The notes below the pieces were generated by a model, which was not told the origin of the DNA, did not search any database, and worked only from the letters and a program-made list of their open reading frames with translations. From positions 88,102,001 through 88,166,000 of the forward strand of contig CM059438.1 in NCBI GenBank assembly GCA_030390025.1: a DNA stretch of 64,000 nucleotides. Direction: 5' to 3'. Position 1 is the first letter of the stretch. Every line of letters starts with the position of its first letter. Made by a program: the position numbers and the translations under genes. Below are positions 3,251-55,600 of the stretch, piece by piece. This DNA is from Squalus acanthias (taxonomy: Eukaryota).

Positions 3251-3546
3251 TTTATATAGCCCCTTAATGGTCTCAAGGGTGACATGCAAATTTCATCATT
3301 CTTCTACAAGTTGCAGCCATAGTAATTGCTACAGTTTTCAGTGTGGCCATTTGCAGGACATTAAAGCAATTCACAGACAATGAGTTAGTTTTGAAGTGTA
3401 GTCACTGTTATCTTGTAGGCAATTGCAGTAGCCAGTTTGCACACAGAGGTCCCACAGACAGCTTGTGAAATAAATGGTAATCTGTTTTGGCGGCATTAGT
3501 TGAAGGATAAACGTCAGCCAGGACATCTCCTGCTCTTCAAATAGTG

Positions 3547-3765
3547 AGAAGTCGCACAACACCAGGTTATAGTCCAACAGCTTTATTTGAAATCACAAGC
3601 TTTCGGAGCGCTGCTCCTTCGTCAGGTGACTTCACCTGACAAAGGAGCAGCGCTCCGAAAGCTTGTGATTTCAAATAAAGCTGTTGGACTATAACCTGGT
3701 GTTGTGCGGCTTCTCACTTTTGTCCACCCCAGTCCAACACCGGCATCTCCGCATCATGGCTACTA
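3547..3765. mobile_element. Palindromic Penelope-derived mini element with hammerhead ribozyme cores
   Basis: ~174-bp near-perfect palindrome at 3544-3717; TSD tcttcaaatagtg at 3534-3546 and 3766-3778. Confidence 0.8.
3593..3629 (-). ncRNA. Minimal type I hammerhead ribozyme motif
   Basis: Minus strand reads UCAC-C-CUGACGA-A-GGAGC-AGC-GCUCC-GAAA-GCUU-GUGA: intact core, 5-bp stem II, palindromic AAGCUU stem III, UCAC/GUGA stem I. Confidence 0.72.
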
Positions 3766-4484
3766 TCTTCAAATAGTGTCATGGGATCTTTGCAGGCCGA
3801 CAGGATCTTAGTTTAATGCCTCATCTGAAGTGTAAAAGACGGCACTTCCAGCAATGCAGCACTCACTCACTATTGCACCACAGTGTCAGCCTAGATAATG
3901 TGCTCAAACCCTGTAGTGGATTTGAACCCGTGAACTTCTGACTTGAGTGAGCATCCTACATTACAACGGTGAGTATACTGCAATAGTACTTCATTGGCTA
4001 TAAAGTGCTTTGGGTAAAAGTTGCTAAGTTCAGTAATCAACCATTTGTGTTTCCTTCAGATGCTGACGAGGACTTTCTGTTTTATTTATCTTTCTATCCT
4101 CCCTCCCAAAAATTAGCAGGCATTTTATCCCACACTTAGTTTTAAAGGCAAAAGAAAATCGAAGGGAGGGTAATTTTTGTTCAGTCAAGAAGGTGCATAC
4201 ACAAATTAGTCCCCAGGTCTTTTGCTGTAACATCAGCTGGGATTCCTCTCCCTTCCTTTCTCCCCTCTCTTTACCTCCCCACTTCCTCCACTATTTTGTA
4301 GCTGTAGGATGTTTTATCAATGTGGAAAGCCTTACCTAGGAACCTAAGCAATTAATCACATTGATCTCAACCTTTACGCTGTGCTGCAGAGTTCCCATTA
4401 CCACTGATGACACGGGCAAATCCATCTTGATACAGCTTGCTGATTTGTTTCTTTTCTCCTTTTCCTCCCTCCCCAAATTTTTAG

Positions 4485-13600: not shown

Positions 13601-16600
13601 CCTAGCATTTTGTCATAATTGTGCATTAATAATCTGTCTGGATCATACAGAAATAAACTCATATCACAAAATGCCTCTATTACTGAACTTTGTAAACTGG
13701 AGCATGCATTGGAGACTTTCAGAACAACTATATTGTGAGAATAATGTAACATAGTTACAATTTTACTTTCACTATTTGTAAAATGGTTTATTGTCATACA
13801 GTTTTTTAAAAAAGTGCACACGTTGGCTGCAGTCTATAAATGTTTGAAAAGCTTAATTTCTTAAAAGAATAAGGGGAGAAGTGTACAAGGGGGAGGGAAG
13901 AGAAAGACTGTATAGTCAAGGAGATGGAGCTGTCAAACATCTAAATTACAAGTGGTCACAAGGAGACTTTTTGAAGACAGTGAGTGAGAGAGCAAGTGAA
14001 GTGGTTTCGGGAGAGAATTTAAGGGTAGAGGCATAGTGACTTACTGCAGAGGGAGTATGAACAAGCCGTAGCCAAGAATGGGTGGTCCAGGTAGGGACAT
14101 ATGAATAGAGAAGATCATACGGTGGGGTAAGGCAGTAGAAGAGTTTGATGGTTATTATTAGGATCTTTAAATTGATTCACTGGGCACAGGAAACCTCGAG
14201 TTTGGCAAGGGTCAGGGTGATGGTCATGCAGGACTTTGTGTGGGAGAAAATAGTCGGGGTGGAGTTTGGGATTCGCTGAAGATTGTAAAAGGAAGGTGGG
14301 GGTGGGTGGGGGTGGTTTGGTGGCCTGCATTGGAGAAACAAATCCTGGATATGATGAAGAAATGCATTTAAGACCAGTGGGGGAGAGAAAATGTTCCACA
14401 GGTGAAAGAATCTGGTCTCCAATTGGACTGATGGTTTAGTCAGCAAGTATAGAATAGCCTTGAAGTTGACAGCGGTGGCAGTGAAGCCACATTGGTGGTA
14501 TCTCCGCACATGGGGAAACCTGACGTAGTGTGTGGGGTTAATGTCATCAAGAGATAACCTCTAACAGGTGAAAAGGAAGAGACCGGAGGTGTGCAACATG
14601 AGGAACCATGGTCACAATCACAGATGATGTTGTCTTTGACTGGGAGAGGCTCAGTGCTGTGGGTGTGGTGGAAATTGGATTGGAGGCACTCGAGCATGGA
14701 GTGGTGAAAGAGGTGAGCATGACTGGTTGGCTACAGCATCTTCAAAGACCTGGGAGAGAAAGGGCAGGCATAGAAGGACAGAAAAGTTCACAATCAAACT
14801 TAAAAGAAATCATTCAGATGATTCAGTTTTATAAACTATAATGCACACAGGAGACTAGTTTAAAAAAAAAAAAGTATATTACATTTATGCAGTAATTTTA
14901 CTCTCTAAGGTACCATTTTGGCAGTTTCTGCAGAATGACCTACTACTGTTGGAATTTTGTACTGTGTTCTGAAAATACTATTGCAGACCAAATTCAGGAC
15001 AGGTGGAGGAAAGTCTATACACTGAACATTGAAACTGAAGAATAGCTTTGGTTTGTTTGCAGTGTAAGTGAGGGGTTTGTTTGCAGTGTAAGTGAGGGGG
15101 TTTAAATGTGTATCATAAGGGTGATGGTTCTGGTGCTGTTTAGGATTAGTAATTCAGAGTACTGAAAATCCTTTGCCATTTTCAAATTATACATATTTCC
15201 TGTTATGTAGCATTTGGAATAAAATTGCAGAGCGAGCAATGGTATCGATATTCATCTTTCCTGATTTGATTAAAATTCAATGTGTATTTTAAATATAAAG
15301 CTAACACATTTTTAAATTATTTAAAATGATATGCTAATGTTCAACAAAAAAACACAAGACTGGAGATATATTGGAGCTGCTGAATTTTGAATAATGTAAT
15401 GCTCTTCAGATCAAGTTATAAACTTATGGGGTGCTCTCTTTAAAATAAATTGTACATCACCATTGCTGCAAGAAGTTGTTGAGTTTCAACCCCCATGGAC
15501 CAGGTTGAGAAGTTCTTAATCCCCCATTTGAGGGTGGGGGGCACTGGATGGCACCCAACTTTGTGTAAGTTCACAAAAGCAAAATAGTGCGGATGTTGGA
15601 AATTGGAAATAAAAACAAAATGCTGGAAATACTCAGCAGGTCAGGCAGCATCTGTGGAGAGAGAAAAACAAAGTTAATGTTTCAGATCGATGACCTTTCA
15701 TCAGATGTTAGAGATGTAATGGGTTTTAAGCAAGTACAGAGGCAGGGAATTGGGGGAGGGAAGGGAAGGTCTGTGATGGGGTGGAAGGCAGGAGAGATTA
15801 AATGACAAAAGGGGTGATGCAAGGCAAAAGGGGATGGCAATGGGACAAGTAAAGAAACAAAAGATAGGTCTAGAGGAGGTGTAAATGGAGAATCATTGCC
15901 AACAGCTGCCATCTGGAAAAAATGGGGGGCAGTGGTTATGATTTGAATTGTTGAACTATTTAAGTCCGGAAGGCTATAACGTGCCTAATCGAAAGATGAG
16001 GTGCTGTTTCTCAAACTTACGTTGAGCTTCATTGGAACAGTGTAGGAGGCCAAGGACAGAGAGGTGGTAGTGGGGCAGAGAATTAAAAAGACTGATGACC
16101 AGAAGTTTGGGGTCAGGCTTGCAGACTGAACGGAACTGTTCCACAAAGCGATCACCCAATCTGCGATTGGTCTCCCCAATGTAGAGGGGACCGCATCGTG
16201 AGCAGCGAATACAGTATACTAAATTGAAAGAAATACAAGTAAATCGCTGTTTCACCTGGAAGGAGTGTTTGGGGCCCTGGAAAGAGGGAAGGGAGGAGGT
16301 AAAAGGGCAGGTGTTGCATCTCCTACGTTTGCATGGGAAGGGGAGGGGGTGATTGTAGGGTGGGCAAGGGTGTTGCGGAGGGAACGGTCCCTTCAGAATA
16401 CTGAAAGGGGAGGGGAAGATGTGTTTGCAGGTGGCATTACGCTGGAGATGGCTGAGGATGATCCGTCAAATGTGGAGGCTGGTGAGGTGGAAGGTGAGGA
16501 CAAGCTTCATTGGAACATTGAAACCCTATCGTGGTTCTGGGAGGGAGGGAGGGGTGAGAAGTACTGCGGGAAATGGGACGGACACGGTCTAGGGCCATGT

Positions 16601-19600
16601 CAATCACGGTGGAGGGGAATCCTCGGTTGATGAAAAAGGAAGACATATTGGAAGCACTGGTATGGAAGGTGACATCGTCAGAATAGATAGGACGGAGACT
16701 GAGAAACTGGGAGAATGGAAGAGAGTCCTTTGAGGAAGCGGGGTGGAAGGAAGTGTAATCAAGGTAGCTATGGGAGCCAGTGGGCTTATAGTGGATATTG
16801 GTCGATAGCCTATCCCCAGAAGTGGAGATAGAGAAGTCGAGGAAGGGAAGAGTCTGAAATGGACCATGTGAAGGTGAGGGAAGGGTAGAAATTGGAAGCA
16901 AAGTTGATTAAATTTTCCAGTAAGGGGTGAAAGCAGGAAACTGCACCGATACAGTCATCAATGTACCGGAAAAAGAGGTGAGGGAGGAGACTTGAGTAGG
17001 ACTGGAACAAAGAATGTTCCACCTATGCCACGAAAAGGCAGGCATGACTCGGACCCATACGGGTTCCCATAGCAACACCTGTTTTTTGGAGTAAGTGAGT
17101 GGAGTCAAAGGAGAAGTTGTCAGTGTGAGAACCAGTTCAGCCAGGCGAAGGAAGAGGGTGGTGGTGGATGGGGACTTGTGGACCTCAGTTCAAGGAAGTG
17201 GAGAGCCCTTTGTGTAAGCTTGCATTGTGGGAGAGCAAAGCGCTGCAGATACTTGAAGAATCCGTGATGTCACACTGGCATCGTGACCTGATATTTGCAT
17301 CGAAGTGTCATGATATTTTTCCATCCTGTCTGGATTCAGTAGCTGCAGTGGACATTAATTGGCACCCCTTAACCACCTAGAATGCCAGCTGTATGCTCGT
17401 TCCAGACCCTATTCGGGCAGTTCATGGCAATGAGGTTGGAAAGTAGTTACGTCTAATGCGGTGCTAGTTCTCAATTGGAAGTTTCACTTGGGTACTATTC
17501 ACCATCATTCTTAAGCTAATTACCTAGACCTTTAATTCAATATGGCTTAATTATCATTCATCGATATGAAAGATTTCTACTTTCTTAAATTGTTTAATCA
17601 TATCTAATGATCACTGTTTTAACATTCTGCCAGTAATAATGCACCCTTCTAAACCTACCCTCCCAAAAAAACCTTTCATATTCATTTGCACATCTATGGT
17701 TGGTAAGTTTCACGCAGGGGGGACATTAAGTTCAACAACAACAATTTGCATTTATATAGCGCTTTTAAAGTAGTAAAACTTCTCGAGGCGCTTCACAGGA
17801 GCGATATTATCAAACAAAATTTGAAACTGAGCCACATTAGATACTAGCTCAGTTGACCAAAAACTTGGTCGACGTGGTCGGTTTTAAACAGTCTTAAAGG
17901 AGGCGAGAGGCAGAGAGGTTTAGGGAGGGAGTTCCAGAGCTTAGGGCCTAGGCAGTTGGAGGCATGGCCGCCAACGGTGGAGCGATAAAAATCGGGGCTC
18001 TGCCAGAGGCCAGAATTGGAGGAGCGCAGAGCTCTCAGGGTTGCAGAGTTGGAGATAGTTACAGAGGTGGTGGAGGAACAGGACATAGAGGAATTTGAAA
18101 ACCAGGATGAGAATTTTGAAATCGAGGCATTGCTGGACTGGGAGCCACTGTAGGTGTGTGAGCGGGACTTGGTGCAAGTTCAGATACGGGCAGCAGAGTT
18201 TTGGAGGAGCTCAAGTTTACGGAGGGATGGGATGCCGGCCAATGATGTCACTTTGCTGCTGTGCAGTCTTTTAACTTGGGGTAGCAACACGATCTTGAGA
18301 ACCAAGATAAGTAAATCAAGCAGATATAAATATATTGGATTCTTTTTCCAACACACGTCTGGATTATCCAGTCAATTGGTGTTTCATTACGACAGATTTC
18401 AGTTGAGTCTGTTAAGTTACAGCAGCATTAATTAGTAACTGCCTTGTTATGAAGGTTGTGGATAAATAAATGGAGCTGCAACTTCAGATTTATTATGCAC
18501 AGACATGCACTGTACCAATCTGTGACATTATAAAACTTCGACTTCCTTATAAAATCCTCCATTCAATGGCCATATTTAATTTCTCTGGTTCAAATAAATG
18601 CTAATCTACATAAATGTTTGTCGACAAAGAAATGTTTATTTTGCAAGCATAATAGTTACATAATACCCAGTTAAAAATGCTTCACAAATAATGGAACAGT
18701 AGATAAATGTACAGTTAAGACACTTGTACGAGCTATGCCAAAAGACTGAAGTATTTTTGATATTTGGGGCCCCAGTGTAGCCCAAATCTATGTAAGTGCT
18801 ATCTTAAATGGTAGACAAAACAATTGCATCTACAGACTCACATCGTTGTGATATTATTCATGTAGTGTGGAAAAAATGGCCAAGTACATTCTCTGCCAGC
18901 TAAATAATATAAATACAATCGATACTGCCGTGCACTTGGACAGGCTTTTCTGTTTCGCTTTACAGATTTCAGCATTTCCTCTTGGTTGTCCTACAAATCA
19001 GTTGTGCCATTTTTAATATTATATAAACGCAGAGAGGTCTGAGAACAAATTGTTGCCGCCAGATTTTAGATTATCTGTACGAGTGTGGTGTTAATGGTAG
19101 ATGTAGAATAGTTCAGGGCCTCACTGTTTCCCCCCGCTCATAATGGGTGGAGCCGCTAGATTGTGAGCCATATACTGGTTTAAGAGTATTCTATAAGTTC
19201 ATGTCATTCTGGTCAGTATAGGACTGGTAATTCATCTGTAACTTTGCTACAGCAGGTATCGCACACGAGTTCAATCTGGACTTGTTTACGAATGTTATCA
19301 TGCGTTTGATCTTCTTGATTGATGACTTGTCCGTTATACCTGATGAGTGCAGGTGGTGTTTTTCATCAGGTAGCCTTTTTATATCATTTTCATCAAACCA
19401 GTCCTAGTGTTTACGGATTGTTGGGCCCACGACTTTCAAAGCTGCATTGTGGACTGCATCTCTGAAGCAGTTCCCGTCAGCTTCAACGTCACCAGAAGCT
19501 GTACTTACAGTGATAAAATGGTTTTTAATAGCTGTGCAGAGTTCTTGTCTTGAGCAAACAGACTTGAGTTTGCTCACATTTAACAGTTTTTTTTTGCCTT

Positions 19601-22600: not shown

Positions 22601-25600
22601 AAAATTTTCAAATTGCCCAATTGTGGTGTAGGCCCACACCCATGAGGAACTACACTGAGTCCCAAACATGGAGAGACTTGCCTTCTAACATTTGGGTGCT
22701 TTTGTCTCATCAGTCTGGGCTGGCTTTGAATCCTGGTCTCAAAGGTGAAAGAATACTGCACCATCCAATACTTCTCTCCCCACCAGTCCCTGTTTGTTTT
22801 GTTGTTTTTTCCACTCCCTATCTTTTCAATGAGAGATTGTATAACCAGACATGCTGATCTGAACTTGGTCTGTAAATAGGAGCCCTGCTTTTTCATGTTT
22901 ATTTCTTGTTGAAATCTTCAATCCATTATAATGAAAACCTTTGCCTTGGCCCAAACTGTAAAGCTGATGGTAAAAGCTTTTTTCTAAGAAAAATGTAAAA
23001 TTATTTAACAATTGTAAACTTTTTTGGATTACAGTCCACTGAGTTGTTTATGTGCTTTAAAAAATCAAATTGTCCAATAATTTAAATTAAACACAGCAAA
23101 GTGGGAATTTAGTGGTTTAAAATATTAATTCAGATAATTTGAATTAAGAGGAGTAAACTGTATACTAACGCCAAACATTCAGTAAAACATCGAGCTTAAC
23201 GCTGCCTATTTCTGGGAAATTGTTGGGTGTTGGTAGTAAGACCACTAGGAAGAAGTAGTTTCTCTCTATTGACGTAGCTGGTGTTCAACCAACTTCTCCT
23301 ATTTAAAACCTGCTATTTAGAAAGTACTTGGGCAGAGTGCTATTCCGTAGTTGCATTCCCAGTACTAGCAGAGGGCCGATGATCCTGCCGGTTCCTTTCA
23401 TGCATTGAAATTTTCACAACCATCAGAGGCTGGTAGGTAAAGCTGTGCACATGATTTTCCCGATTTCAGTGTTGTAAAACTGGGCAATATTCTCCAGCTA
23501 GCTACTCAAAAATACTCGAGTCCTGCAGTGCTTGGATCAGTGTAATTAGGTATTTGACACACAGACATTAGGGCATTATTTAGTTAGATGACTTTCTGGC
23601 ATTAGTTTGTTTCTTTAAAAAAAAAAATAGCTTTGTTAAGCAGTAATCCTCAATAAACAGGGTTGAATTTTAATTATAATTCAGCTAGTTGGCTATGTTT
23701 TTAATGCACCTTCTGCCAGGTTAAGCTGTAATGTGTATGTAGATGGAGTGAGCATTGCATAGCACAAAGATGTCTTTTTTAAGGAAATTTCATTAAATTA
23801 CTCTGGAAAACCAATGTACAGGTATATAATTCAAGAATAAAACTTTGCTGTAAAAAGGAAATAATTGAGTTCTAGATTTTAAGGCAAGAATATCACCACA
23901 GAACTCCAGAAGTTCTTTGATAGCCCCTTCCAAAAAAAGAGAGAAACCACTGCTCAAATATTGTCTCAACCAGATGAACTCTCAAATGGCTACAGGCCAT
24001 TAACCTGCGGTTTGTCTAATTGTTTAGCTGCAAACAGGATAATTTATGGAACTCTGTAGCCAAGCTTAGTTTTTCCTGTTTTAAGTTTGTTTTTGTTATT
24101 GTTAGCTTTTTACTTGGTCTCCCCAAATTTGTTGTGTTTTAATTTGGTCAAAGTAGGTGTCGAGTAGCACACAGAATTCACACAGGAAAGGAATTACAGG
24201 CATGCTGAATCTCAGGGTGTCACATTTCTGGGCGCAATCATGCAGTCAGGGTTCTAAAATCAGACTGAGTTAATGGAGAGCAATTGCGGTGAATATTTTG
24301 GGTGTTTTTCTAATGTTCAACGTAGCAGATTCCTTGCAGGTTTGATGGATTTTTATCAGTTAAACCTGAAAAGTGGAAATCCTAATTATTCAGCTTTGCC
24401 TAAGTCGCACACGTTCTACAAACTTAAATGTTTGTCCTCGCCTTTGTTTCATATCTGTTAATTGCATACGGCTGGCTGTTCACCCATCCGATCGTTTGCT
24501 GATCTGTAATTCTGTGCAAACAAGTACATTAACCTGTTGCCTGAAGCCCTGCGTGCTGTAGAAGACGTCTATAAATAGGTTTGTTTTTCTTCAAACGTGC
24601 AGTCCTATCGTCACTCAGAACTGATCCAGGTTATACACTAATATATTGCAATTTGACCCATTATATCACAGTATTTGTTATTAGAATTTTTGTTGAGTTG
24701 ATTCTTATACCACCATATAATTTCTATATATGTTATCCCAGATTGATTTTTAAGAGTATATATATATTTTGCACAAATTATGTGGAGCAAGAATTTAACC
24801 TTTGCTGAAGTATAGCAGTCTGCTGTTAAGCAAAGTTAACATTTCTGCAGGACAGAGGCCAGCTAAAGAAACAACAAAATGGTGGCAAATGGATTGCAAC
24901 TAATCCTATGGACTGCTGAAAATAATCTGGTTCGAGAATTCTATCCTAGACAGAAGTAGCAATGCTTCACAGACTGATTCAGATAAAGTAACAACTTTTT
25001 TTCTATAATAATGTTGATGGGCAGCTTTTTTTTTTGAAGGCCACTGACTTTTTTGTCTTTTATTAGTCACGTCATCTAGTGACCCTAAGGCCGGCCTGTT
25101 GCCGAGGTTCACCTCTGTGTACACTGTGTAATATTTAATTCATTATTTCTTATGATTTTTCTCAAGTATTTCTTATGGGTGATTTACATTTTGTTGCTTG
25201 GGATATTTACATAATGAAAGGAAGCAAGAGTGTTTTATTTTACTCTATATATTGAAAGGGGAATGAGTCTTTCAAAATACTGTACTGTGAAGTCTGTGGT
25301 GTGTCACAAGGGTGCTGTAAATAATTGAAAATTCATTTATTGGTGATTGATTATCAAAAGGTATTTTTTCCCCCAACTTCATTTTTGGGTGTGGTTTTGG
25401 TGAGAAATGTACCACAAATCAGCAGGACCTAAAAATAACCCCACAATATTTGGTATCTTTGAAATGTTTGTGTTGAAACTTCTAACTTTGGTGCCCATGA
25501 GGTTTTCTTCATTTGGTTTAACTTTTAAAAAAAATTAAATAATTGATGTGGAAAATAAACATTCAAAATCTAGACAGAAATAAAAACTGGAAATCTGAAA

Positions 25601-28600
25601 CAGAAAAAGTTAGAAATACATAGCAGGTTCATCAGAATCTGAAAAAGGTAGGCTAACATTTTGGTTGGAGACTATTCATCAGAACTTGAATTACAGGCAC
25701 GTGAGGATGAATCCAGTCTTCACTGTCTCGTAGAGAGGCTCCTCATTGTGAAATGTATGCCAGTTGCGAGCTGGGGTGAGGGAAAAATGACGTTACTAAT
25801 GCGTCTCTGCTGCAAACTTATAGCCATTGCATAGTCTGTTGTTGGCTGGTGCACTAGCGAAGGCCATCGCTTGGGCTGTCTTGCTCTCCCGTGTGAAGTA
25901 AGCTGTACGTCACTGGAACCATGATAAATTTGTGGGTGAATGGAAAAATAAACTGCAGCAGAGTATTGCAAGTATCTTTAAGAATATATAGTAAGAAGTG
26001 AGTAAACATGGGAGATTGGGCTCAAGATGCAAGTTTGAGTAATGGGGTTTGTCTGTGTGTTGATTATGGTCTTGAGTTTGGAAACCATTGTGCAGAAAAA
26101 CCAGGAGTGAGTATCTTGAGACCTTATGGTCTTGTCTCCTGTAGAGCGAGAGCAATAGTGAGGATGCTGGTGAGGGTGAATACGTCAATCTGTATTCGTC
26201 CAACCAAACCAATGGAGACCTCTCTCACCCAGAAGCAGTAAGTAGCTTCAGAAGCATGTTGAGTCATTGCTGCTTGGCTGTAGAGGAAAGCATGCTGGAA
26301 ATGGTCTTTTGTTGTGCTGCTCATATCATTGTGCTGTGAAACTCATCATTAATAAAATTAACACCCCAACCAACCACCTGCCCAGTATCCTTTTTTGCCC
26401 TGCTTAGATGGTAGGATATCACATGACAAATTTGTCTGGCAAGTACAATGTCGTTGGTAGGTCGAGATGCCATTATGGTCAGGAAGTGTTGCACTTTTTT
26501 GCCAAAGAAAATTTAGCTTAATTTGTTGAGATATAATTGGCGATTTCTACCATCAACAGTTGACATTGAAGCAAAACATAGGCCAACTTCTAATTGATAG
26601 GTAAGATTTTGTAAAATATCTAGTGTGGGTCCCTTTCTTTAAGCTTAATTGCATCTGCAATGCACTACTACATCCTGCTTTAGGTTTTGTGGACTACTGC
26701 ATTATTGCAACTTCCAGTTCCAGGCATGCAGTGCACTGCAACACTTCAATGCACAATCACAGCTAGGATGTCATAGCTTCACCCAGCTTTATACTTGCAG
26801 GCTCAACGCAAATTTCAGTGGGCTTACAACAGCTACGCAGGGATAGCACTGTCTCGACATCTAGCTTGGCATTGCTGCATCCAGTTTTGTATTTGAGGTG
26901 CACACAGATGAAGGATGACTCTGCTTTGTCTATTTCTTCAACTGCAGTGCAAGTAGACGATTACTACATTAGTACCCAGCATCTCTCTACGGGAAAAGTC
27001 ATCAATCATATTGCATCACTCAAGACATTTACAGCAGGGAATAAATCACGTTCTCGCAGTGCAGGGAACTGTGGGACACTGTTTAATTTCTGCAGCTGAT
27101 TCAGCTGTGTGTACAGAATACTGAATTGCTTCTTGGTATTCCAGTCATTGATCAAACATGTAGTTGAGAAGTCTGTGGTTGTTGGTCTTGGTGGTGTAGC
27201 TTTGTAGCTTCTTATTAAAATATGTGCCTTTAACATGCCTCATACTGCTACACGTATAACTGCTTGCATGGAGAATGGCTATTGGCCATTGGACTGCTTT
27301 CTCTCACATGGCTGCAGTAATGAAAATGGATTAATTGGCTTTCTACTCCAGCCTTTCTGCATGAGAATATATTGAAATATAGGGCTTTCAAGAATAGTAA
27401 AAGTGTGTAACTGATTGTTCGTTTGGTATAACTAATCAGTTATAAACATATTTCTCCTGATATGTACATGCAAATATAACTACCAGTTGCTCAATTATGC
27501 TCCTCATTGTTCCTTCTGTAGTATGTGCTACATTAATCTTGAATGATATACACCTAATACTTGTACAGATTGGAGACTAAGCAATTACCCAGTTAATTTG
27601 GGTTGATAATTGATTGGGTTGACCTGGGTCTGCTGTTTTAACTCTGAAAGCTCTATGGCAAACTAATCAATTTTAATTCCTTTGCCTTATGGAATTATAT
27701 GTCCTAATTGACCACCCTGTTGGAATAGTGGATAAAATGCTCACTTTGCAGTTTGAGGGTACAGCACCAGTCTCTGTTTGGAGAATTTGCCACAGTTCTG
27801 GCAACACTGGGTGTAAAATTTGCTGCTACAAAAGTTAAGTGGGTGTATTATCCTCTACACTAAGTTGCCTATTTCGCAGTTATTTTTATAATGCCCAGCA
27901 ATTAAGGGCTACTCCTACACTAACTTTCTAAAATTATTTTGGGTACTAAATATCTCTTGCCACTCAATATATACTAGTGCTGACAGTAACATTTTCCAAA
28001 TGTGATTTTCTGCAGATTTCTGATTATTATAAAGTTTTTTTTTAAAGTACAGAACCATAGAATAGTCCTCAATTTAGCAAATTCATACAGATTTACAAAC
28101 AAGTTGCCTATTTAGTAATAAACCTATTGGCCGGTTGACTTTGAATGCTGAAGGAGGATCTTGACAGTGACTGTACCAAGATCACAGTAAAATTATTTTA
28201 CATACTCTCGGGTCGGGGAGTTCTATGATTCTGTACATTTCTCGTTGCAATATTCAGTATTGGATATTTGCAGAACATAATTTTTTTGATATCATACAGT
28301 AGTAAACTGATATTTAGCACTTCAAAGGTTCATATTTCCTGGGAAAGAGAAACCCAGTGTTAGATAGTCATCGACCATTTTTTATTCTTTCTTTCTGGCT
28401 ATTCAGGAAATACCGATGTGTGCTGACACTGTAAGTGATTCCATCTTTAACTTTTGGCTTAAATTACAATAGTACAATTGTACCCAGCAACTTTTAACAT
28501 GTTTTTGGACAATATGATCATCAATAGTAAATAATACTTGGGAATGGCTGTAATTATTGTGGGGTCTCTATTTATCTATGTACTTGAAAAATTATAATAG

Positions 28601-34600: not shown

Positions 34601-37600
34601 TAAATGCTCATCCATTCTTGGGTACTTGACTGAATCCGATTCTAGCAGTACTTCATACAGGTAAGCGTTGCCAAAAAAAATGCCAGAAAAATTAGAAATT
34701 TTAAACTTTTCCAAATACTCTTCCCTCACATTATGTACCATGAGCCGTAAAGATTGATTACATACAAGTCACTTTGAATGCATCTTGAGCTTCCTTCCAT
34801 AATTTTAATTTCACGGGTATGGAGAACTTGGACCCAAGAAAGTTCTTCTGCAGGGCACAGGATTTGAGGTAAAAACAGAAAATGCTGTAAATACTCAGCA
34901 GGTCAGGCAGCATCTGTGGAGAGAGAAACAGTTAACGGTTTCAGGTCAATGAGCTTTTGTCAGAACAGGATTTGAGGATTAGGAGATACTGTTTAAAGTA
35001 AAGGATGTCAAAAGAAAATAGGACATTTGTTAGTTAATCACATTAATTTTAATTTTTGGTTGCTTCCGCTCCTCCATTCTTCCTCACCAATTGATCTTCC
35101 AGTTTAACTACTTATACTTTCCTACCAACTTCGTTGAAATCTTTCTCTCTTACCACTCCACCCCACAAAAATACACTCCATTCAATTGGTACACACGGAA
35201 GCTTTTTGTAGTTAGTAGTTTCTCCTCCCTATTCCTATCCACCCACCCCATATCCTATCAAGTTGTCCAGATATGTAGGCAATGATCACATTGACCTCCA
35301 GGTAATTGAAGCTGCTTTTTGTGCTAGGCTGAAACTAGCAAATAAATCAACAATTTTAGATCCCTTTTATTGTCCATGCATTATTGCACAAGTACAATGT
35401 GCATTCACATCCTGATTTTTATGTATCTAGTACTCATTGTACCCAACAGTTGAATCATCTTCCCAGCCCTCGTTTTTTTTAAATGATCGATGCTCCTGTG
35501 TGCAATAAATTTCTTCCTTTGGACATCCAAGAGACTGCCGCTCTTTTATCTTTTATTCATTTTAGCACATTCCCAATTTAATAGAATAAGCAGTATCTTT
35601 CCAGATCAGGTAGCCTCCTACCACCTCTTTCCTTTTTAATTTTTCAGTTCCTACTTGTGGATGCCTTCTGTTCCCTATTAAAATTTTAATCTTTTGTAAT
35701 GTACATTCACTCCCTCCACCACCGGTGTACCATGGCTGCAGTGTGTACCATCTACAAGATGCACTGCAGCAACTCGCCAAGGCTTCTTCGGCAGCACCTC
35801 CCAAACCTGCGACCTCTTCCACCTAGAAGGACAAGGGCAGCAGGCGCATGGCAACACCACCACCTCCAAGTTCCCCTCCAAGTCACACACCATCCTGACT
35901 TGGAAGTATATCGCCGTTCCCTCATCGTCGCTGGGTCAAAATCCTGAAACTCCCTCCCTAACAGCACTGTTGGAGCACCTTCACCACACTGACTGCAGCG
36001 GTTCAAGAAGGCGGCTCACCACCACCACCTTCTCGAGGGCAACTAGGGATGTGCAATAAATGCTGACCTTGCCAGTGACGCCCACATCCTGTGAACGAAT
36101 AAAAAATAATAAATCCTTGCAAGAAGCTATCGGCAACAAGTTGTGTAGTGCCTTTCACATAACTGCCCAAAAGTGCTTCACGCAAGGGAGAGCGTTTTCT
36201 GCATAGTGGTAAAAGAGATGGTCAAAAAGGTTTAAAGGTGGGAGAGAATTAATAAATTAAGGTGGTTCAGAAAGTAGGCTGGAGATAGCTGAGGGGTTTG
36301 CTGCAGATAGAGGAATGAAGAGAAATGGATACACAGGAGGCCAGTATCAGAGGACTGAGGGGTGCAGGCTAGGATGCAGTGCTGGTGGTAGCGTGCATCA
36401 AGAATTATTTTTAATGGGAGCGAGGATTTTAAATTCAGTGCATTGGGGGACAGGCAGTCAATGGAGGTTCGTCCAGGGCAGTGGTGATGGGTGAGTGGGA
36501 CTTGGTGCAGGACTGTATGTTGGTGACAGTTTTGCGCATGTTGGAGTTCATGTAGGATAGAACGCCTAAGGTCATTGGAAAAGTCAAGACTTGACTTAAC
36601 AAAAGCATGGATAAGCGTTTCTGTGAGAATGGGGTGAGCTTGGGGGAGGGGCTGAGGAGTCATCACGCAGAGGTGGAATTAAGCAGTCTTGATGGATAAG
36701 GTATGGGTTTTGAACCCAAATCAGGGTCAAACAGGACACTCTGTACCACCTGGTTCAGCCTGGCTGAGCAGCTGAGGAAGGGGACGGAATTGACAAAGGA
36801 GTAGAAGTTTTGGTGGGGAGGAACGATACGACGGCTTCAGTTTTCACCATATTCAATTGGAGAAAATTCTGGCTTATCCACGACTTGATGTCAGAGAAGC
36901 CTTGTGATAAGAGGTGGTCGCTGAATCCAGCGGGCGGGTAGAGAGGTCAGGCTGGGTGTCATCAGTTTATGCATGGAAACTGACCCCCATGCCTACAGAT
37001 AATGTCTGAGGGCCAGAATGATCGGGGGATTCAAGGATGGGATACTTCGGTAGTGAATCAGGGATTCGAGCCATTGTTGGAGATGTGATGGATACTTTGG
37101 GTCAGATATGAGTGGCAGGTCAACTCTACAGGAGACAGTTGATGGAGTGGTTGACTATGCTGAATGTGGGATTTTCATAATATTTACACTTCCACACTCA
37201 GTGACTTCATCTTGTTCTTTGTTTGTTTTGAATGTTGTGACTGCTCAGGACTGATTTCAAGTTTTATCATGTTACAAATATTTTGTATCAACTTCATAAC
37301 CAATCTGTAATATACTATAGCACCCACTGTGTATGCTATAAACCTTCCAGATCAGTCAGTTTTTTTTTATTACACTTGTATGCTACCTCTCTTGCACAAT
37401 GATGAAAGCAGTCAAAAATGAACTTGATTTTTATTCAGTATTGTAAACAATAGCCTATACCTGCCAGTGAGTTAAAGGAAGTATTCAGTCTCTGGGGTTT
37501 GTTGACCTTCATAAATCCATTGCAGTTTGACATTGAAACTGCTCAATTTAACTGTCTTATAAATAAAATGTAGGATGACACTGTGGAGCAGGAAGAAAAT

Positions 37601-40600
37601 GACAGGTTCAAGAGGGCAGCCCCAAAGAAAATCTGCTGGAGGTAGTAGTGATTGCAGTAAGCAAACAATATCTGGAGAACGTTTTGATGATTGCAGTTTT
37701 AGTGGTAGAATGAGGTTCATTGCTTATATTTTAAAAAAGAGTGATATTCCAAATACTGAATGTTGGGAGGATATCAATTCTGACTCGGCCTGATGTTACC
37801 CACATGTTCTACCGATTTGTTGCCCTTGTACTTAAAACGAAGAAAAAAAACCTGTGATGGTGAATAACTGGTGCCCAGCAGCTGAACATAGGGACAGGAG
37901 TAGGTCATTGAGCCCCTCGAGCCTGTTCCACCATTCAATGAGATCGTGGCTGATCTGCGACCTAACTCCATATACCTGCCTTTGGCCGATATCCCTTAAT
38001 ACCTTTAGGTAACAAAAAGCTATCAATCTCCGATTTAAAATTAACAATTGATCTAGCATCAATTGCCGTTTGCTAAGAGAGTTCAGACTTCTGCCACCCT
38101 TTGTGTGTAGAAGTGTTTCCTAATTTCACTCCTGAAAGGTCTGGCTCTAATTTTTACACTATGCCCCTAGTCCTAGACTCCCAACCAGCCGAAATAGTTT
38201 CCCTCTATCTACCCTTTCTGTTCCCCTTAGTATCTTGAAAACTTCGATCAGATCACCCCTCAACCTTCTAAATTCTAGGGAATGCAATCCTAATTTGTGT
38301 AATCTCTCCTCGTAACTTAACCCTTGAATTCCGAGCATCATTCTGGTAAACCTACGCTGCACTCCTCCGAGGCCAATATATCCTTCCTAAGGTGTGGTGC
38401 CCAGAACTGCTCTCAGTACTCCAGGTGTGGTCTAACCAGGGTTTTGTACAGCTGCAGCATAACTTCTACCCCCTTGATCTATGTACCTGGACCCCCAAGT
38501 CTTTTTGGACCTCCACTGTTTTTAGCTTTTCACCATTTATCCTTTTTAGGTCCAAAGTGGATGACCTCACATTTGCCTACATTGAAATCCATTTGCCAAA
38601 GTTTTGCCCATTCACTTAATCTGTCGATAACCCTTTGAAATTTTATGCTTTCATCTACAATGCTGCCTATCTTCGTGTCATCGTCAAATTTGGATGTGAC
38701 TTTCTATGCCATCATCTAAGTCGAGAAGTCGCACAACACCAGGTTATAGTCCAACAGTTTTATTTGAAATTACGAGCTTTCGGAGCGCTGCTCCTTCGTC
38801 AGACGAAAGCTCGTAATTTCAAATAAAACTGTTGGACTATAACCTGGTGTTGTGCGGCTTCTCATTTTTGTCCACCCCAGTCCAACACCGGCATCTCCAC
38901 ATCATTATCTAAGTCATTAATAAATACTGTGAATAGTTGAGGCCCCAACACAGATCCCTGCGTATAATATCCAGAGATGTGTTTTATACAAGAGCAGACC
39001 AGGGTAAGTGCCTGTTCTCTCTTCAGTCAATTTTGGAACGTCACTGACGAAATACACAAGATGCATTTATCCTTAATGGGTTTTTGTTCCTGTTTTGGAA
39101 GAGTACTGTGCTTTTTTACACTTTGCATCGGTACTTTGTTTCTGTAGGCTGTATTATATAATGTAGCGACCAAGAGTGCAAATGTGCAGGACTAGCTCCC
39201 TGTGTATACTTAACTCTGGTAGTCTTAACACACAGACAGATTTGCAGACTCGACTCTTGTGTCCACAATGCCATCTCCATCCTGGAGCGTCAGACTGATT
39301 ACATAATGGCGTGCAGCCACCGAACGTACAGCACTTTGCCCCGTAAACTGGTTTTACCGTATGGGCCCACCACTCTGACATTTTGGCCATTCTTTGTGTG
39401 GAGTATATTATGCCGTTGCCACAATGAGGATAATGGTTTGTGTGCACAATGGCGCCATGTGATGTCACCATATGCGCCCTGTAGCTGCCATGGTGGTGCA
39501 TTTACTGGCCTCGTGAGGACTGGCAATAGTCGGGAAGATCCAGCGAAAAATGGCCTTGGCCACTGGTCCTAAAAATCCCAACAAGTTTATTTTAATGTGG
39601 CCACCAGCTACGTACTGTGGGAGCCAGGAGCCAAAGGCCAGTGTAAAAGCAGCTGTCCTTCGTCCAGGCTGTTTCACCATCTTAGTTAAAATTTCTTGTG
39701 ATGGAAACATACCTGTTGTGTGTTAGTTTTGGAAATTAACAATTAACTTGAGAGAAAACTTGCCATAATAGTAAAACACATCTTAGTTTATTTAGTGCCA
39801 TTGCACAATCATTTCCCAATCATTACATCTACTGTCTAGCAATTTAATAGTTTTTTAGTTTGATATTGCCTCAAATACAGAAACATTGACAGGCTAGTTT
39901 GGCGGGATAAATGTGCTGGTGGGGTTACAAGCACTGACCTCCTGTTGGGAGTGTCGAGCATTTCTAACGCTTAACGCTTTAGTTGAAATGTTCACTGCAG
40001 AGATCAGTTCCTCTGGGACTTGGGGTAAACTTAATTAAATTTTAACCACAAAGGCTTACATTTTGAAGTGATAATTTTAACTAAAAATAAAATTAAAATT
40101 CATTTGGAAACTTGACGAATGTGAGTTTACATAGACGTGTATGAAATGGGAGGAGCCATAGTTCTTAGGGTCTTGTAATCATTACATCCATCTTGAATTT
40201 CACTTTAAAACGCGAGTTTCAGATCTCTAGCATGTAGAAATATATGCCACTGTTACACATGCAGATTAAATAATCCAAAACTCAAGATGCATTTGATCAC
40301 TTTTTTTAAATCTTCCCCTGAATACGACAGTCACCTCATCATCAAAACATATGACTTTCACACGCCATTCTGTAGAGCTGTTGACTCGGTGGACGTATTC
40401 CTGGCGGTTTCATTACATGTTTTCCCACCTCCAACGGCCAAACAACTAGTTTTCCCAGTTCCAATATTTCTATAACTAATAAACCAAAGTGTTAGACGGT
40501 TACTGGGTGATTTGATCAAAGTTTTCAAGATATTAAGGGGAACAGATAGGGTAGATAGAGAGAAATTATTTCCGCTGGATGGGGATTCTAGGACTAGGGG

Positions 40601-49600: not shown

Positions 49601-52600
49601 GTGTGTAGTGGTGAGCTGAGCCTGGCCCGGGTTCTACGAAAGAATATTCTGGATAAAGTAGATCAGAAGAAAACTGTGAAATACGCTAGTTTGATGAAGC
49701 CGTTAGCTGCACGAGGGGTAGCAGCAAGGTATGAGTTGTATGCATACTTTAAAAAAAAAATACTTTGAGTTTCATGCTGTTTTCTGGGTTATACTAAAGA
49801 GAGTTGTAAATGTGTCAATATTGAGAACAGAAATGAATAAGTACCTGCACCTGTGAAGCAAGCAATGTAAAATAGTGTACACTGAAATGTGGGGAGACAA
49901 TATGTTTGAAAGGCATTCACAAACATAGCTGCCAATAAATGAGGTTACAGACCTCCTTGAAGCATATTTGTACGTTACTGGAATAGCTCATTAGCGAAAC
50001 TTAAATAACCAGATGGAAATGGACGGTATCGGAATTAATTTTTTTTGTCGGGGTTGGGGGGAGAATGCTGTTGAATGAAAACGGAATCTATTCTGTCCCT
50101 ATGACTTCCTGTAAACTTCAGGTTTTAATGCCTTTTCCCCCCCCCTTCAGGCCTGGAACCCTTCATGACTTTCACAGTCATGAGATTGCTGAGCAGTTGA
50201 CACTGTTGGATGCCGAGCTGTTCTACAAAATAGAGGTAATGATCTGATGGGGAATATTTTGAACGGGTCTGTGTTCTGTGACAAGTCTAACAGATTAGTA
50301 CATTTTCATGGATTGCGTTGACATGAGATTAGCTGTCAAGTGAAACACAACACTGTTCTGTTTATCTGAACTGCTGAAGAAACAGCAAGCCTGTTTGAGA
50401 TAATTAGAAGTCAAAGGGTTCAATTGAGTAGAAGAATAAGATTAGATCAGTAGAAGTGAGCCATGATCGACACCTTCACGATCAGACAATTGAGAAACAA
50501 GCTGAGGTTTCTGCTATTGAGAATTATTCTACAAACAATTGACTAGTGAAGATAATTGATACTATGCTATGGTCTTGGTTTGTAGAGAGAGGGTATAATA
50601 TTGAATGCAGGACTGTGTCTGAACATTTCCAGTGGGAGACTCCGACAAATGAAATTTAGGACAACTTCTTGTCCCCTCCTTTCCTTCCTCCAAATCAGTT
50701 AACGTCAGCACTGTAAAAATAAGGATTCCATTGGTGGTTCCTTTGTGCCATATTTTTGGAACCAAGGGTATATCACGGTCCTGATCTAATAAATCTGTTG
50801 CCAGTCTAGCAAATCTTTTGGCTGCCTTCATCTCACTTTTCTATCACTTCTCTTAATGACAGATCCCTGAGGTTTTACTCTGGGCCAAAGAACAGAATGA
50901 AGAGAAGAGTCCAAACCTAACGCAGTTTACCGAGCACTTCAACAACATGTCCTATTGGTGAGGATGAGGCAATATTTCTCAATTCTTTACGTCTCTGACC
51001 AGTCTGGACCAAAATAGTCGAGGTGGGAAGAAATCAGTTCCGTGGGGGTAAGAACAAGCTGAAATGATGGGTCGACCAGGACAGTCCTGTTTGTGGATCA
51101 TGGGGAGGAGGTAGAAGCGGGCTGTGCGGTGTTGGCGGGGCGGGGGGACTGAAGGAGGCTGTAGGAGAGGGGAAAGATTTCCAGAGGAGATGAGGTCAGT
51201 GATGGTCTGAGAAACGATGGTTTGAAGTTCGCTGGTGGGGTTGTGATCCAGGGGGAGGTGTGAGGAGGTGTCTGAGAGTTCGTCGTCATTACCCCTCTGA
51301 AACTGACTGCACCTGCAGGTTGTAGCGCATGCACATCTAAACGTGGAAATCCTGAAGTTGCGATCAGTCATTCACTGCTCCGACACGGGCTGCGCTGTTG
51401 ACCGCCCTCCAAATAGCTGGCAATCAGTGAAACTGACGAAAACTTGGGCTTTTCCACACTAAGCTTGTTGACGTCACTGCAGCTCTTTGCTGAGAATCCC
51501 CATGACAGAGTGACAATCAATTGAAGGTCGAAAAAGACAAACTTCTTATCACAGATCGCGAGATCTCTGTGGGCAGCTTTCTTTGGGGCCAGCGGCACGC
51601 GCCTTTGCTTTGCCACTGACCACAAATTACAGGCCAGTGTAATTTCATCTGTTGAATCCTGTTGGTCTCTTTCAGGGTGCGGTCAATAATTATTCAACAG
51701 GAAAAAGCACAAGATCGAGAACGGCTGCTCCTAAAGTTCATCAAAATTATGAAGGTTTGTAAACTGGTGCAGGGTTTAAGCTACATTCATTGTAATATCC
51801 CACTGTTGTCAAGATCATTAATACTGAGAGTTGCAGGACTTTTTATAAACAAATATGACTTAATGTGCATATGTTAGAATATCGTGCAACTTGGGTGGTG
51901 ATATGTAGCTGTTCAAGAACTAATCTAAAACATAGTGCAATTTTATGCCTGTGAAATGCGTGTTTGTAGGAGGGACTGTGTGTATTTTATATGCATGTTG
52001 ATGCAAGTTTCCAGACAGATGGAGAGCATGGTACAAATCAGGCTGGACATCTCTGGCACCGAGAGGGAGGAAAATATTTTCGGGAAAAGAAAAATCTATC
52101 CTTTACAGAAATATCCATTTAGCTCTGTAACTTTGAAATCCTCGCAACATGTGCTGAAATTAAAACATTTTTTCCCCCCTTTTTTTTTAGCACTTGCGCA
52201 AACTGAATAATTTTAATTCATACCTGGCTATATTGTCTGCATTAGACTCGGCGCCCATCCGTAGGTTGGAATGGCAGAAGCAGACTTCAGAGGTAAGGTC
52301 CTTCCTGTCCCTTCAGGCTTTTTGGTGCTTGATTCAATTTAGCAAATGAGTATGTGACACAATGTCCAGGCTTCAATCCATGCAATGACAGAAGCTTATC
52401 CATAAATTTCAGCAACATGCCTTCAGGGCAGCAGTTGGCTATATTTAGGTTTATTCTGTCATCTCAGTTTTATGCGGCTGCTGCAGCAGAATGTCTATGG
52501 CATTTCATGGATGCATACTTTCATGTATATTTAAATCAAGAAACTGGATTTTTTTTAAAAAGGAACGCTTTGGAAATTAATTGATTAAATAATTTACCAA

Positions 52601-55600
52601 TTGCAGAGTCCCACTGGATAGCTGATAATGGAAGTGTTAGATTGATGAAATGAGGGATGCTTTATGCTTTTTACCCCAGAGTTGAGGTTGATGCACATGA
52701 TCAGGGTATGGTAAAGGCACTTGACTGATGTCCATCCCATAATACATATCAGCTGAGAGTGGTTGATTTTGTTCCTGATTGCAAAGAGGGGAAAAAATGT
52801 TCTGCTGTTCAGCACTATCGTCCTTCAACTTGAGGAACACAGAATTCCCTGGAAGATCAATTGAACCGTGAACAGATTATGCAACAGCAAGAATTAAACC
52901 TAACCTTGGAGCAGCCAGAGCTCTGGAATAGCAAGAGCATTCTCAGTAAATGCAGTGTGCTGATTAAAAGGGTTACTCCTAAACGCCAACTTAGTTTGCC
53001 ACAAATATAACTGCAGGGTTACATCTGCTTCAGTTGTCACAGTTGTATGCAGCTTAAAATACATGCAAATTACACAGTAATGTTTTTCAGCTCTGAGTTT
53101 AGTTGTCTTTACTGAACTGTGCCTAACACCCTGTCTCAGTCTCAATCACGTGCCGCTTTTCAGCACCAACATAAACGGCCCTTTTGAAGTTGGGAAGAAG
53201 CCATGAATTCTGGAAATCAGGAATAAAAATAAAGTGTAGGATATGCACCGCAGGTAATTCTGAATCTGAAAGAAAAGTTATCAATTCTGGTGGCAATTTC
53301 TGAGAGATTTCTTGATTTTTAAAAGTGTGACTGGAAAATTGTAAAAATTCCTCTGAAAATTCATGCTCACAGAATTCAGTTTTACCGGATCACAACTCCA
53401 AATTTCCACTTTCCTGTCTTGCAACAGGCAACATGGTTTACATTTAAAAAAAAATATATAAATACGTTAAATAGTTGTTTTCTGGGCTATTGCCAGGTGT
53501 AAAAATGTGATCCTTGAGATGTGAGAAGAGAAGTCTGCAGCCATGGGTTATCCTTAGAATTCACAAATCTCCACCAACTTTTAAATCCTCTTTCTTAATA
53601 AGACTTGCTTGTTTGGTTTTTAATTATGCTTTTATGTGGGTTCAAAGTCATATTAAAACCACTTCCACTTGGGTCAAAACTGCCCACTCCAGTCAGCTCA
53701 GTCAACTAGCTTTGAGACTGAATTAAATTGAACTTGGAGAGAGAGGAGGAGGTAAATGAGAAGGTAAATGAAAAAGACAATGAAACAGTGACAGGAAAGA
53801 ATAAACTTTGAAAGATTGGTAGCAAGTTGAAGACTAAGGAAAAGGACTGAAGATATTTATAGCAGAATAGATAAAGGCAACGAGGTAAGTTTCAAGAAAG
53901 ACATTGACCCGTGACTTGGTACCGTGGAGGGGAGGCAGTCTCGCAACAAGCCCATCTCTTTACAAAGTGCCTTGCATGAAGATCTTTATTAAGCAACCGG
54001 TGACCAGCAAGTCTGGTACACAGCATGGACTTGGAATCTGGAACATCAAGGTGCTTGGTACAAAGCAAGCTGTCCAGCATAGATCCTTTCACCATGCTGA
54101 AATCAGATGCCTGCCACGTAGCTGACAAAACTGAGGCTTGGCACAGCAGCTGCTAGACAAGAGTTGCCTGAATGCTGTTTAGACCACCATATGCTCATGT
54201 GTCAAAGGGTCTGTGCCAACCATGATTGTATTGCAGAGATGCAAGGCAGTTGTTGCTAAACCTTTGCACCAACAATTGGTGAAAGCACAATTTAGTGAGG
54301 TATGGGCAAACTATGATCAGGAGGATAGTGACAACACTCATTCTAAGGTGAGCTGAACTGCTCATTAAGCCAACTGTGACCGTTCCTTGTTTCTGCTGTT
54401 TGCCTTGCAAGAAGCTAGCAACACTGTCTGGCAGCTACCATGCCAACCCTTTGTCAATTGTCTAATATGAGAAGTCGCACAACACCAGGTTATAGTCCAA
54501 CAGATTTATTTAATTTTACAAGCTTTCGGAGCTGTCGCTCCCTCAGGTAAGTCAGGTAAATTGTCTAATAAGCAACTAACTATTCTCCTGGGTGGGGAGG
54601 GGCAAAGGTAAGTGGGGCCTCTTTTATCAAATTGGCTCCAAGATAACACACCTGCTAAAGGAAGATTAGGATTGAATCAACTCTCCATAGTGGACTCAGT
54701 AATCTGATACCTGAGCCAGGCAGATGTAGAACTGCATAGAAATTACAACACGGAAACAGGCCGTTCAGCCTGTATTTATCTTGTGTTGGTGTTTACCCTC
54801 CACATAAAGTGTAGTCCTAATCCCATGTGCCCACTCTGTTCTCATATCTCTCTATTCTCCTTTCCTTCAGCCACCTATCTAATTTATTCTTAATTGTTGA
54901 CATGGTCTCTGCTTCAATCACTAGCTCTGCTAGCGCAATCCACAGCCTCACAACCCTCCGTGTAAAAACAAAAGTTTCTCCTGTGCTATGTCCTGAATGG
55001 CTTGCATTTAATCTTATAATCTGTGATCCCTTGTTCCAGGCCTCTCAACCACTGGAAATGTTTTTTTTCTCTATCTTCTACGTCCCAGCCCTTCATAATT
55101 TTAAACACCAATCACCCCGTAATCTCTGTTCTAAAGAAAACGGCTTCAATTTGTGTCTTGTACTCTAAGCCACTGCTGAATCCAATCAGCCTGGCTAATT
55201 AATGGGGCCTGGCAGATAGACCTGCAACTGGGGGGCTGGAATTCTGCCCACTCGCACAAACCAGAGCTCTAACATGTAGGGTAGCTCTAACTGGACAAAT
55301 TTACCAGTATTCTGTGCTGGTAAGATGTGTGGTCTAAGCTGGTTAACCTTAGCACTACTCCTGCAAACTTGATGAGGTGAGGGGGGCGAATAGAGTCCCT
55401 GAGCCTTGGCTTTTGCCAGCCGTAGCTCTCTGGACCTAAGTAAGTGTGATGGATCCTTACAGGGAGAGAGTGTGCACTCACTCCATAATCAGGCAAACAG
55501 AACTTTGAACTGTGTGGATTTCTCAGTCGCTTGGCTTCGAGACTCTTGAGCACGTTTTTTGCACCTGTCAGGCACCCACCTGACCAAAACAAATGGAAAC

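Follow-up and report, generated by a model that had tools for sequence, protein, structure and literature searches.

A palindromic insert of ~220 bases, located in a 64-kb stretch of the 3.7-Gb Squalus acanthias genome (the window, i.e. all 64,000 nucleotides that were analyzed), consists of two head-to-head pLTRs that probably arose in one insertion, during which each target strand primed a cDNA on capped sense RNA, both cDNAs ran off and their ends were joined. We place the probability of this reading at roughly 0.7. The insert is a recurrent product of Penelope-like insertion and as such a known footprint. Published work already covers its inverted pLTR with the tail, the TSD, hammerheads in the pLTR and paired motifs on opposite strands, whereas the evidence for a cap-derived G and for mixed arms is apparently new; among the titles and abstract openings found in the open-access literature, none reports either for Penelope-like elements.

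The first-pass annotation of this DNA had described a near-perfect inverted repeat, a 13-bp TSD and a hammerhead on each strand, and all of these are real (Table 1). The repeat has 84-nt arms (3546-3629 and 3632-3715) that are complementary at 82 of 84 positions, and its predicted fold of -165.7 kcal/mol yields z = -26.9 against 200 shuffles. The TSD is exact, with microhomology at the ends of the insert, where 4 nt of the left TSD copy and 2 nt of the right one double as element sequence. The hammerhead core is intact on the minus strand, and the G8 to A change at 3641 that distinguishes the plus-strand core is a CpG transition. That description had missed a one-sided, unpaired tail of 50 nt, which carries the start codon of an ORF. 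The insert is a stub without a TATA box and is likely to have been dead on arrival.

Table 1. Positions of the insert, its surroundings and its relatives, counted from the first letter of the window.
Feature	Positions	Strand	Remarks
Host repeat into which the insert fell, an old SINE-like element with a tRNA head	3363..3947	-	
Left TSD, 13 bp	3534..3546	.	last 4 nt also match the first RT start site of the element
Tail-less pLTR arm	3546..3628	- (sense on minus)	~+87 back to ~+4
Intact minimal type I hammerhead	3593..3629	-	predicted cut 3597/3596; pattern and family covariation
Junction	3628..3629	+	+1 is A, preceded by an additional G that was probably copied from the cap; arms share 2 nt of microhomology
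Tail-bearing pLTR arm	3629..3765	+	+1 to +137 of the inferred element transcript
Minimal hammerhead, G8 to A at 3641	3632..3668	+	would-be cut site 3664/3665
One-sided tail	3716..3765	+	start codon 3756-3758 and first codons of ORF
Right TSD	3766..3778	.	
Copy 2, two-armed, other subfamily	38710..38915	+	TSD 12/13; truncation of the tail arm falls within stem II
RasGEF-domain exon	52191..52292	+	PF00617, E 4e-8
Copy 3, single tail-less arm, third subfamily	54456..54570	-	12-bp TSD

The host repeat is abundant and ~350 bp long, and its minus strand carries a tRNA-like B box; it may be a DeuSINE. Since RasGEF exons lie on the plus strand, so does the host gene, and the insert would sit in one of its introns. 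A PDB search with the RasGEF exon returned SOS/CDC25-type relatives only; the gene is presumably RAPGEF1, judging from a proline-rich motif.

It is evident that the arms of the insert are the pLTRs of an autonomous Penelope-like element, as longer arms lead upstream, past a 3' UTR, to sequence for a GIY-YIG-type domain and an RT. An autonomous Penelope with the same terminal repeat, which the earlier annotation had proposed to look for, was therefore found: one copy (L256) exhibits the full layout of TATA box, +1, hammerhead, tail, ATG and ORF, and another (L192) encodes 840 open codons. Copies are 98-99% identical where the arms continue into 3' UTR, GIY-YIG and RT sequence, and the RT stretch has 98-100% identity among 40 scored copies. 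The RT domain matches Pfam RVT_1 (E 6e-10 and 4e-7), and the GIY-YIG-type domain is recognized by its motifs (VYLIRC / YIGET / R..H), a Pfam search of the element ORF having returned no GIY-YIG match. The protein also contains a DKG motif in its RT and, between RT and the C-terminal GIY-YIG-type endonuclease domain, a C-x5-C-x2-C linker of the CX2-5CxxC form that characterizes the Neptune clade. All three features are common to Neptune elements (PMC8557442), a likeness by motifs, and the same source gives the DKG motif and cysteine linker for Neptune and Nematis. The element is accordingly best described as probably Neptune-type, by a linker motif that Nematis shares.

Exact matches to the 27-nt ribozyme core number 21,009 genome-wide, and those to the 31-nt tail motif 32,980. 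To examine individual insertions, we took the first 90 of the 100 tail matches listed, which all lie within the initial 8.3 Mb of contig C1; removal of 5 duplicates left a tail-selected sample of 85. The structural sample as a whole covers the same 8.3 Mb. The hallmarks of endonuclease-bearing Penelope-like elements are all present, namely an inverted 5'-truncated pLTR with a one-sided 30-40-nt tail, a pLTR hammerhead and a TSD, the latter measuring 7-15 bp in 128 of 138 insertions with a mode of 12 (modal 12-13 bp). Two-armed insertions account for 61 of the 85, with junctions ranging from within the pLTR to >1 kb upstream, and the commonest class (36/85) consists of ORF-less stubs without a TATA box, which by rough extrapolation corresponds to ~14,000 ORF-less palindromes genome-wide. 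Ten of the 90 tail-selected insertions adjoin one short motif (L098, L100, L101, L108, L116, L126, L131, L138, L142, L155), which we take to resemble the 3' part of a CR1-type LINE and which may reflect either a target preference or mere abundance.

Dual-strand priming on capped sense RNA fits four features of these insertions: 1) a pile-up of arm ends at +1, 2) an additional G at -1, 3) the presence of exactly one tail, and 4) mixed arms. Firstly, 43 of 146 arm ends fall within 9 nt around +1 (4.8 per nt), compared with 0.29 per nt upstream (P 4e-28). This position lies ~29 nt downstream of the TATA box in an Inr-like TCACTTC and is presumably the transcription start. In four public assembled-contig sets (at most 0.36 of words), depth rises downstream of +1, a pattern that mirrors copy number and cannot mark a start. 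For the D. virilis Penelope, an internal promoter lacking a TATA box is reported (PMC2377424), and promoters within the Penelope-like group therefore differ in type. Secondly, at -1, a position occupied by C or T in the template, G is found genome-wide 5.5 times as often as A (2,785 vs 509), and 42 of 100 listed -1 G's, judged by eye, did not come from the partner arm. Of the 80 centres listed, 50 with two full-length arms separated by 2 nt were assessed by eye; at least one arm carries an untemplated G at -1 in 26 of them and both arms do so in 5, and 9 more of these centres could be decayed CG. The -1 G would be a copy of the cap, although RT can add C without a cap, which counts against this reading. 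In full-length L1 a 5' G has likewise been read as a sign of the cap (PMC2831318).

Thirdly, exactly one tail is present in 138 of 139 two-armed insertions and in 69 of the 70 that were not chosen by their tail, and none has two tails. The tail-less arm starts at ~+87 to +96, and the other arm ends at the tail, near the start codon. In vitro, the anole element extends both target strands, and its two start sites lie at either end of the tail (PMC11167929); it is these two RT start sites that the one-tail rule and the arm starts fit. The tail-less arm exceeds the tail arm by >5 nt in 25 of 61 insertions (by eye), and thus neither arm contains the other. Fourthly, when 41 arm pairs were typed by loop II, 31 were concordant and 10 discordant, with ~34 discordant pairs expected under random pairing. 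After three of the 10 were set aside (one mis-parse, one CpG change and one complex tandem), 7 of 41 pairs differ by alleles that are shared with other copies, 3 of them with a linked second site; the background discordance between arms is ~1% per nt, a slight overstatement as position labels are off by 2 nt.

Two further observations concern the ends of the arms. In 25 of 61 insertions the tail arm is cut short in or past the ribozyme core, far more than the 7 of 61 in which this befell the tail-less arm (P 4e-4), which hints at synthesis order or resection. In addition, some insertions consist of a lone tail-less arm flanked by its own TSD (window 54468-54558, L054 and L058), in some cases with G at -1, indicating that either start site can yield an insertion alone.

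Based upon these features, the following sequence of events can be proposed. The endonuclease would leave target ends staggered by 12-13 nt, and both cut strands would prime RT on capped sense RNA, with priming in the 5' pLTR of the mRNA giving short arms and priming in a read-through 3' pLTR giving long ones. Two short cDNAs would then run off at the cap, a copy of which would supply the -1 G, and their ends would be joined through 0-6 nt of microhomology. Sometimes two RNAs would serve, giving arms of different subfamilies. In L1 twin priming, both target strands also prime cDNA, with microhomology joining and a TSD, as would be the case for the Squalus insert. The arms of L1 copy different parts of one RNA, whereas those of Squalus copy the same segment, which requires two pLTR copies, two RNAs or one RNA used again. 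At a little under even odds, we tentatively suggest that insertion proceeds via a dimeric complex holding two capped RNAs, one per start site on opposite strands, in which case the ~14,000 stubs would be paired strong-stop-like cDNAs and the mixed arms a record of the two RNAs. Several points weigh against dual priming. With 31 of 41 pairs concordant, two RNAs are supported for a minority of insertions only, and ectopic gene conversion or a loop slippage hot spot could give mixed arms; similarly, unequal arms can be mimicked by deletion of the palindrome centre after insertion.

The exact centre of the window copy fits equally well with a different course of events, in which a tail-primed cDNA runs off its RNA at the capped 5' end, snaps back through a 2-bp seed and serves as its own template, after which the resulting second arm is joined to the target at the first start site and later central deletion makes the arms unequal. 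That centre, shared by 711 copies, is the commonest single junction class seen and can be read as a minus-strand fold-back hairpin, and the concordance of most arm pairs is also as expected. Nevertheless, we regard such self-copying as unlikely to account for the insertions, because it cannot place an extra base on both arms (5/50 centres) or combine arms of different subfamilies (7/41), requires a one-sided deletion in 25/61, and leaves unaccounted for the tail-less end at the second RT start site seen in vitro. Priming by both target strands on capped sense RNA is thus the reading that we carry forward.

The minus-strand hammerhead of the insert has a stem I of 4 bp, a stem II of 5 bp, a palindromic AGCU stem III and U at H17. 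An Rfam scan of the 64-kb window returned no hammerhead at E <= 1, and the motif was called by pattern and covariation; an Rfam match of mir-553 to the copy 2 hairpin was attributed to chance. Over 126 arms not selected on the core, there are 53 hammerhead haplotypes, with N7 being C in 75, G in 40, A in 7 and T in 4, and loop II varying from 3 to 9 nt. The pattern tolerated one core mismatch, and conservation of the core is therefore partly built in. Compensatory changes from C-G to U-A are found in stem II of 9 arms and stem I of 14 (a few of them junction sequence), which implies that the hammerhead fold has been kept in the source elements. Thirteen of the 126 arms belong to a subfamily with U4 to C in the core, some of them showing a compensatory pair in stem II (L100, L109, L131, L141, L143, L151-L153, L172).

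Arm ends do not peak at the cut site: by eye, 14 of 100 listed ends fall there against a mean of 10 per position, flat over 10 positions (chi-square P 0.13). Within the tail-selected sample, 5 of 85 tail arms end within 5 nt of it, a weak hint. The lack of a peak is in line with uncut RNA serving as the principal template, and uncut RNA is the template that the anole element prefers in vitro (PMC11167929). Energy minimization of two ribozyme copies gave no active dimer fold, a result that is not informative on activity. Since the sense hammerhead is transcribed second, into an 84-bp hairpin, its cleavage would not be expected, and minimal motifs showed no cleavage as monomers (PMC4209133). The hammerheads of the stubs may best be viewed as passengers, conserved in the source elements and predicted to be masked by the hairpin in pre-mRNA.

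Both relatives of the insert that had been annotated in the window are present, at 38723-38905 (copy 2) and 54468-54558 (copy 3). Copy 3 begins at +1 with G at -1, and its antisense hammerhead core is broken by a deletion; copy 2 has lost its sense core through truncation at the junction, like 25 of the 61 sampled two-armed insertions. An identical A to G change occupies the same plus-strand arm position in copies 1 and 2 (window 3709 and 38857) despite their different subfamilies, and none of 55 sampled arm pairs is discordant at this site; it may be the product of local gene conversion, transcription-linked mutation or chance. Copy 2 is flanked by a long pair of inverted repeats (37884-38271 and 40492-40880; 87-94%, ~2.2-2.7 kb apart). 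There is furthermore a second, older Penelope-like family in the window (15600-17115, 34862-34964, 1405-1549, 25584-25641 and 51057-51149), one pLTR of which carries an intact minimal hammerhead at 15704 (minus strand) with ORF remnants adjoining. The remainder consists of further ends and an RT fragment, and the family is mostly antisense to the host gene.

From three copies whose best core lay antisense to the gene, the first-pass annotation had derived a pattern compatible with selection against pre-mRNA cleavage. The orientation stands, whereas its reading as core preservation does not, given that the antisense core of copy 3 is itself broken and copy 2 lost its sense core at the junction. 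We consider it very improbable that sense-oriented intronic hammerheads have been inactivated by such selection. For each of the three copies in the window, the core that is intact or better preserved does lie antisense to the gene, as do the ends of the second Penelope-like family, and tandem retrozymes are described as somewhat depleted in Xenopus introns (bioRxiv 10.64898/2026.07.22.740005). Genome-wide, at one and the same core CpG, the inactivating G8 to A change is found 583 times and the neutral C7 to T change 2,257 times, with 18,752 copies unchanged; G8 to A is thus 3.9-fold rarer, with no excess of inactivation. The surplus of C7 to T, a strand asymmetry relative to G to A, may be partly inherited or a sequence-context effect; where the T allele was typed, the two arms disagreed in all 10 sampled pairs. 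Moreover, core loss at insertion is more frequent in tail arms than in tail-less ones (25 against 7 of the 61, as above), so that one coin toss of orientation accounts for the pattern, three insertions in the same orientation having a chance of 1 in 4. The predicted masking by the hairpin and the inactivity of monomers (PMC4209133) count against selection as well, and an AATAAA within the same arm is a confounder.

Two options had been left for the insert, a recurrent product of Penelope insertion or a non-autonomous retrozyme-like family, and it is the former that the varied junctions and the continuation of arms into an autonomous ORF uphold. Junctions and arm lengths vary continuously and only 711 insertions share the centre of the window copy, which argues for a recurrent insertion product. 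That the palindromes are a self-propagating non-autonomous family, mobilized by the Penelope protein, seems to us highly improbable. A family-like appearance arises from the best 30 BLAST loci, all 97-100% identical and 25 of them with the exact window centre, but these are ranked by likeness to the window copy and are biased accordingly. A fixed master copy should have left shared ends and a shared internal junction, yet the window-type centre was encountered in 1 of the 85 tail-selected insertions and in 711 (2%) of ~33,000 tail copies genome-wide, and it turns up again in distant subfamilies, in either orientation. The stub lacks a TATA box, and arm-specific inherited variants were not seen. 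Retrozymes are head-to-tail tandems with at least two hammerheads on one strand, and the insert has neither tandem units nor two ribozymes on the same strand. If stubs had served as templates, nested palindromes would be expected; 11 loci have at least three arms, which we interpret as neighbours or partial tandems, none of them being clearly nested. At two loci (L104 and L179), scrambled stretches of internal element sequence separate the arms, which suggests template jumps.

When compared with known systems, the insert most closely parallels the inverted-pLTR insertions of Pen2a_Av in Adineta vaga (PMC3846280; scheme in PMC8557442) and form C of D. virilis (PMC2377424), which have in common with it the head-to-head pLTR, the TSD and a 30-50-nt tail with the first codons at one end. 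A TATA box and an Inr-like TCACT are likewise arranged in rotifer pLTRs (PMC3846280) as in the Squalus element. Squalus differs in that its minimal ORF-less form is the commonest (36/85) and in its +1 pile-up, extra G and sometimes mixed subfamilies. Antisense-template self-priming, the published reading of head-to-head junctions in the rotifer elements, for which the matter was called open (PMC3846280), would give one continuous palindrome, but it predicts no sense +1 pile-up, no -1 G and no mixed arms, all three of which are observed, and is hardly credible here. Poseidon PAc of Anolis carolinensis (PMC11167929) is alike in its two RT start sites bounding the tail, its extension of both target strands and its use of uncut RNA as main template, whereas it belongs to another clade and its ORF starts inside the ribozyme rather than ~90 nt after it; the passages of that paper considered here leave the inverted arm aside. 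Metazoan Penelope-like minimal hammerheads (PMC4209133) similarly lack loop 3 and possess palindromic 15.2-16.2 pairs and an extra base before stem II; dual motifs on opposite strands are mentioned there for Schistosoma at 100-700 bp apart, in contrast to ~10 nt in Squalus, where one subfamily also has U4 to C. Finally, the non-LTR retrozymes (bioRxiv 10.64898/2026.07.22.740005) are also pLTR-derived, non-coding and equipped with type I hammerheads, but are head-to-tail tandems with at least two ribozymes on one strand, whereas the Squalus insert is head-to-head with one per strand.

The locus is ordinary in kind. It is the junctions of the family as a whole that make the origin of the inverted ends of Penelope-like elements testable in an existing in vitro system. 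The two-RNA dimeric model, if true, would take the place of antisense self-priming in explaining how the inverted pLTR arises. Furthermore, the near-perfect 50-90-bp hairpins, numbering ~14,000 by rough extrapolation, are a likely source of intronic double-stranded RNA.
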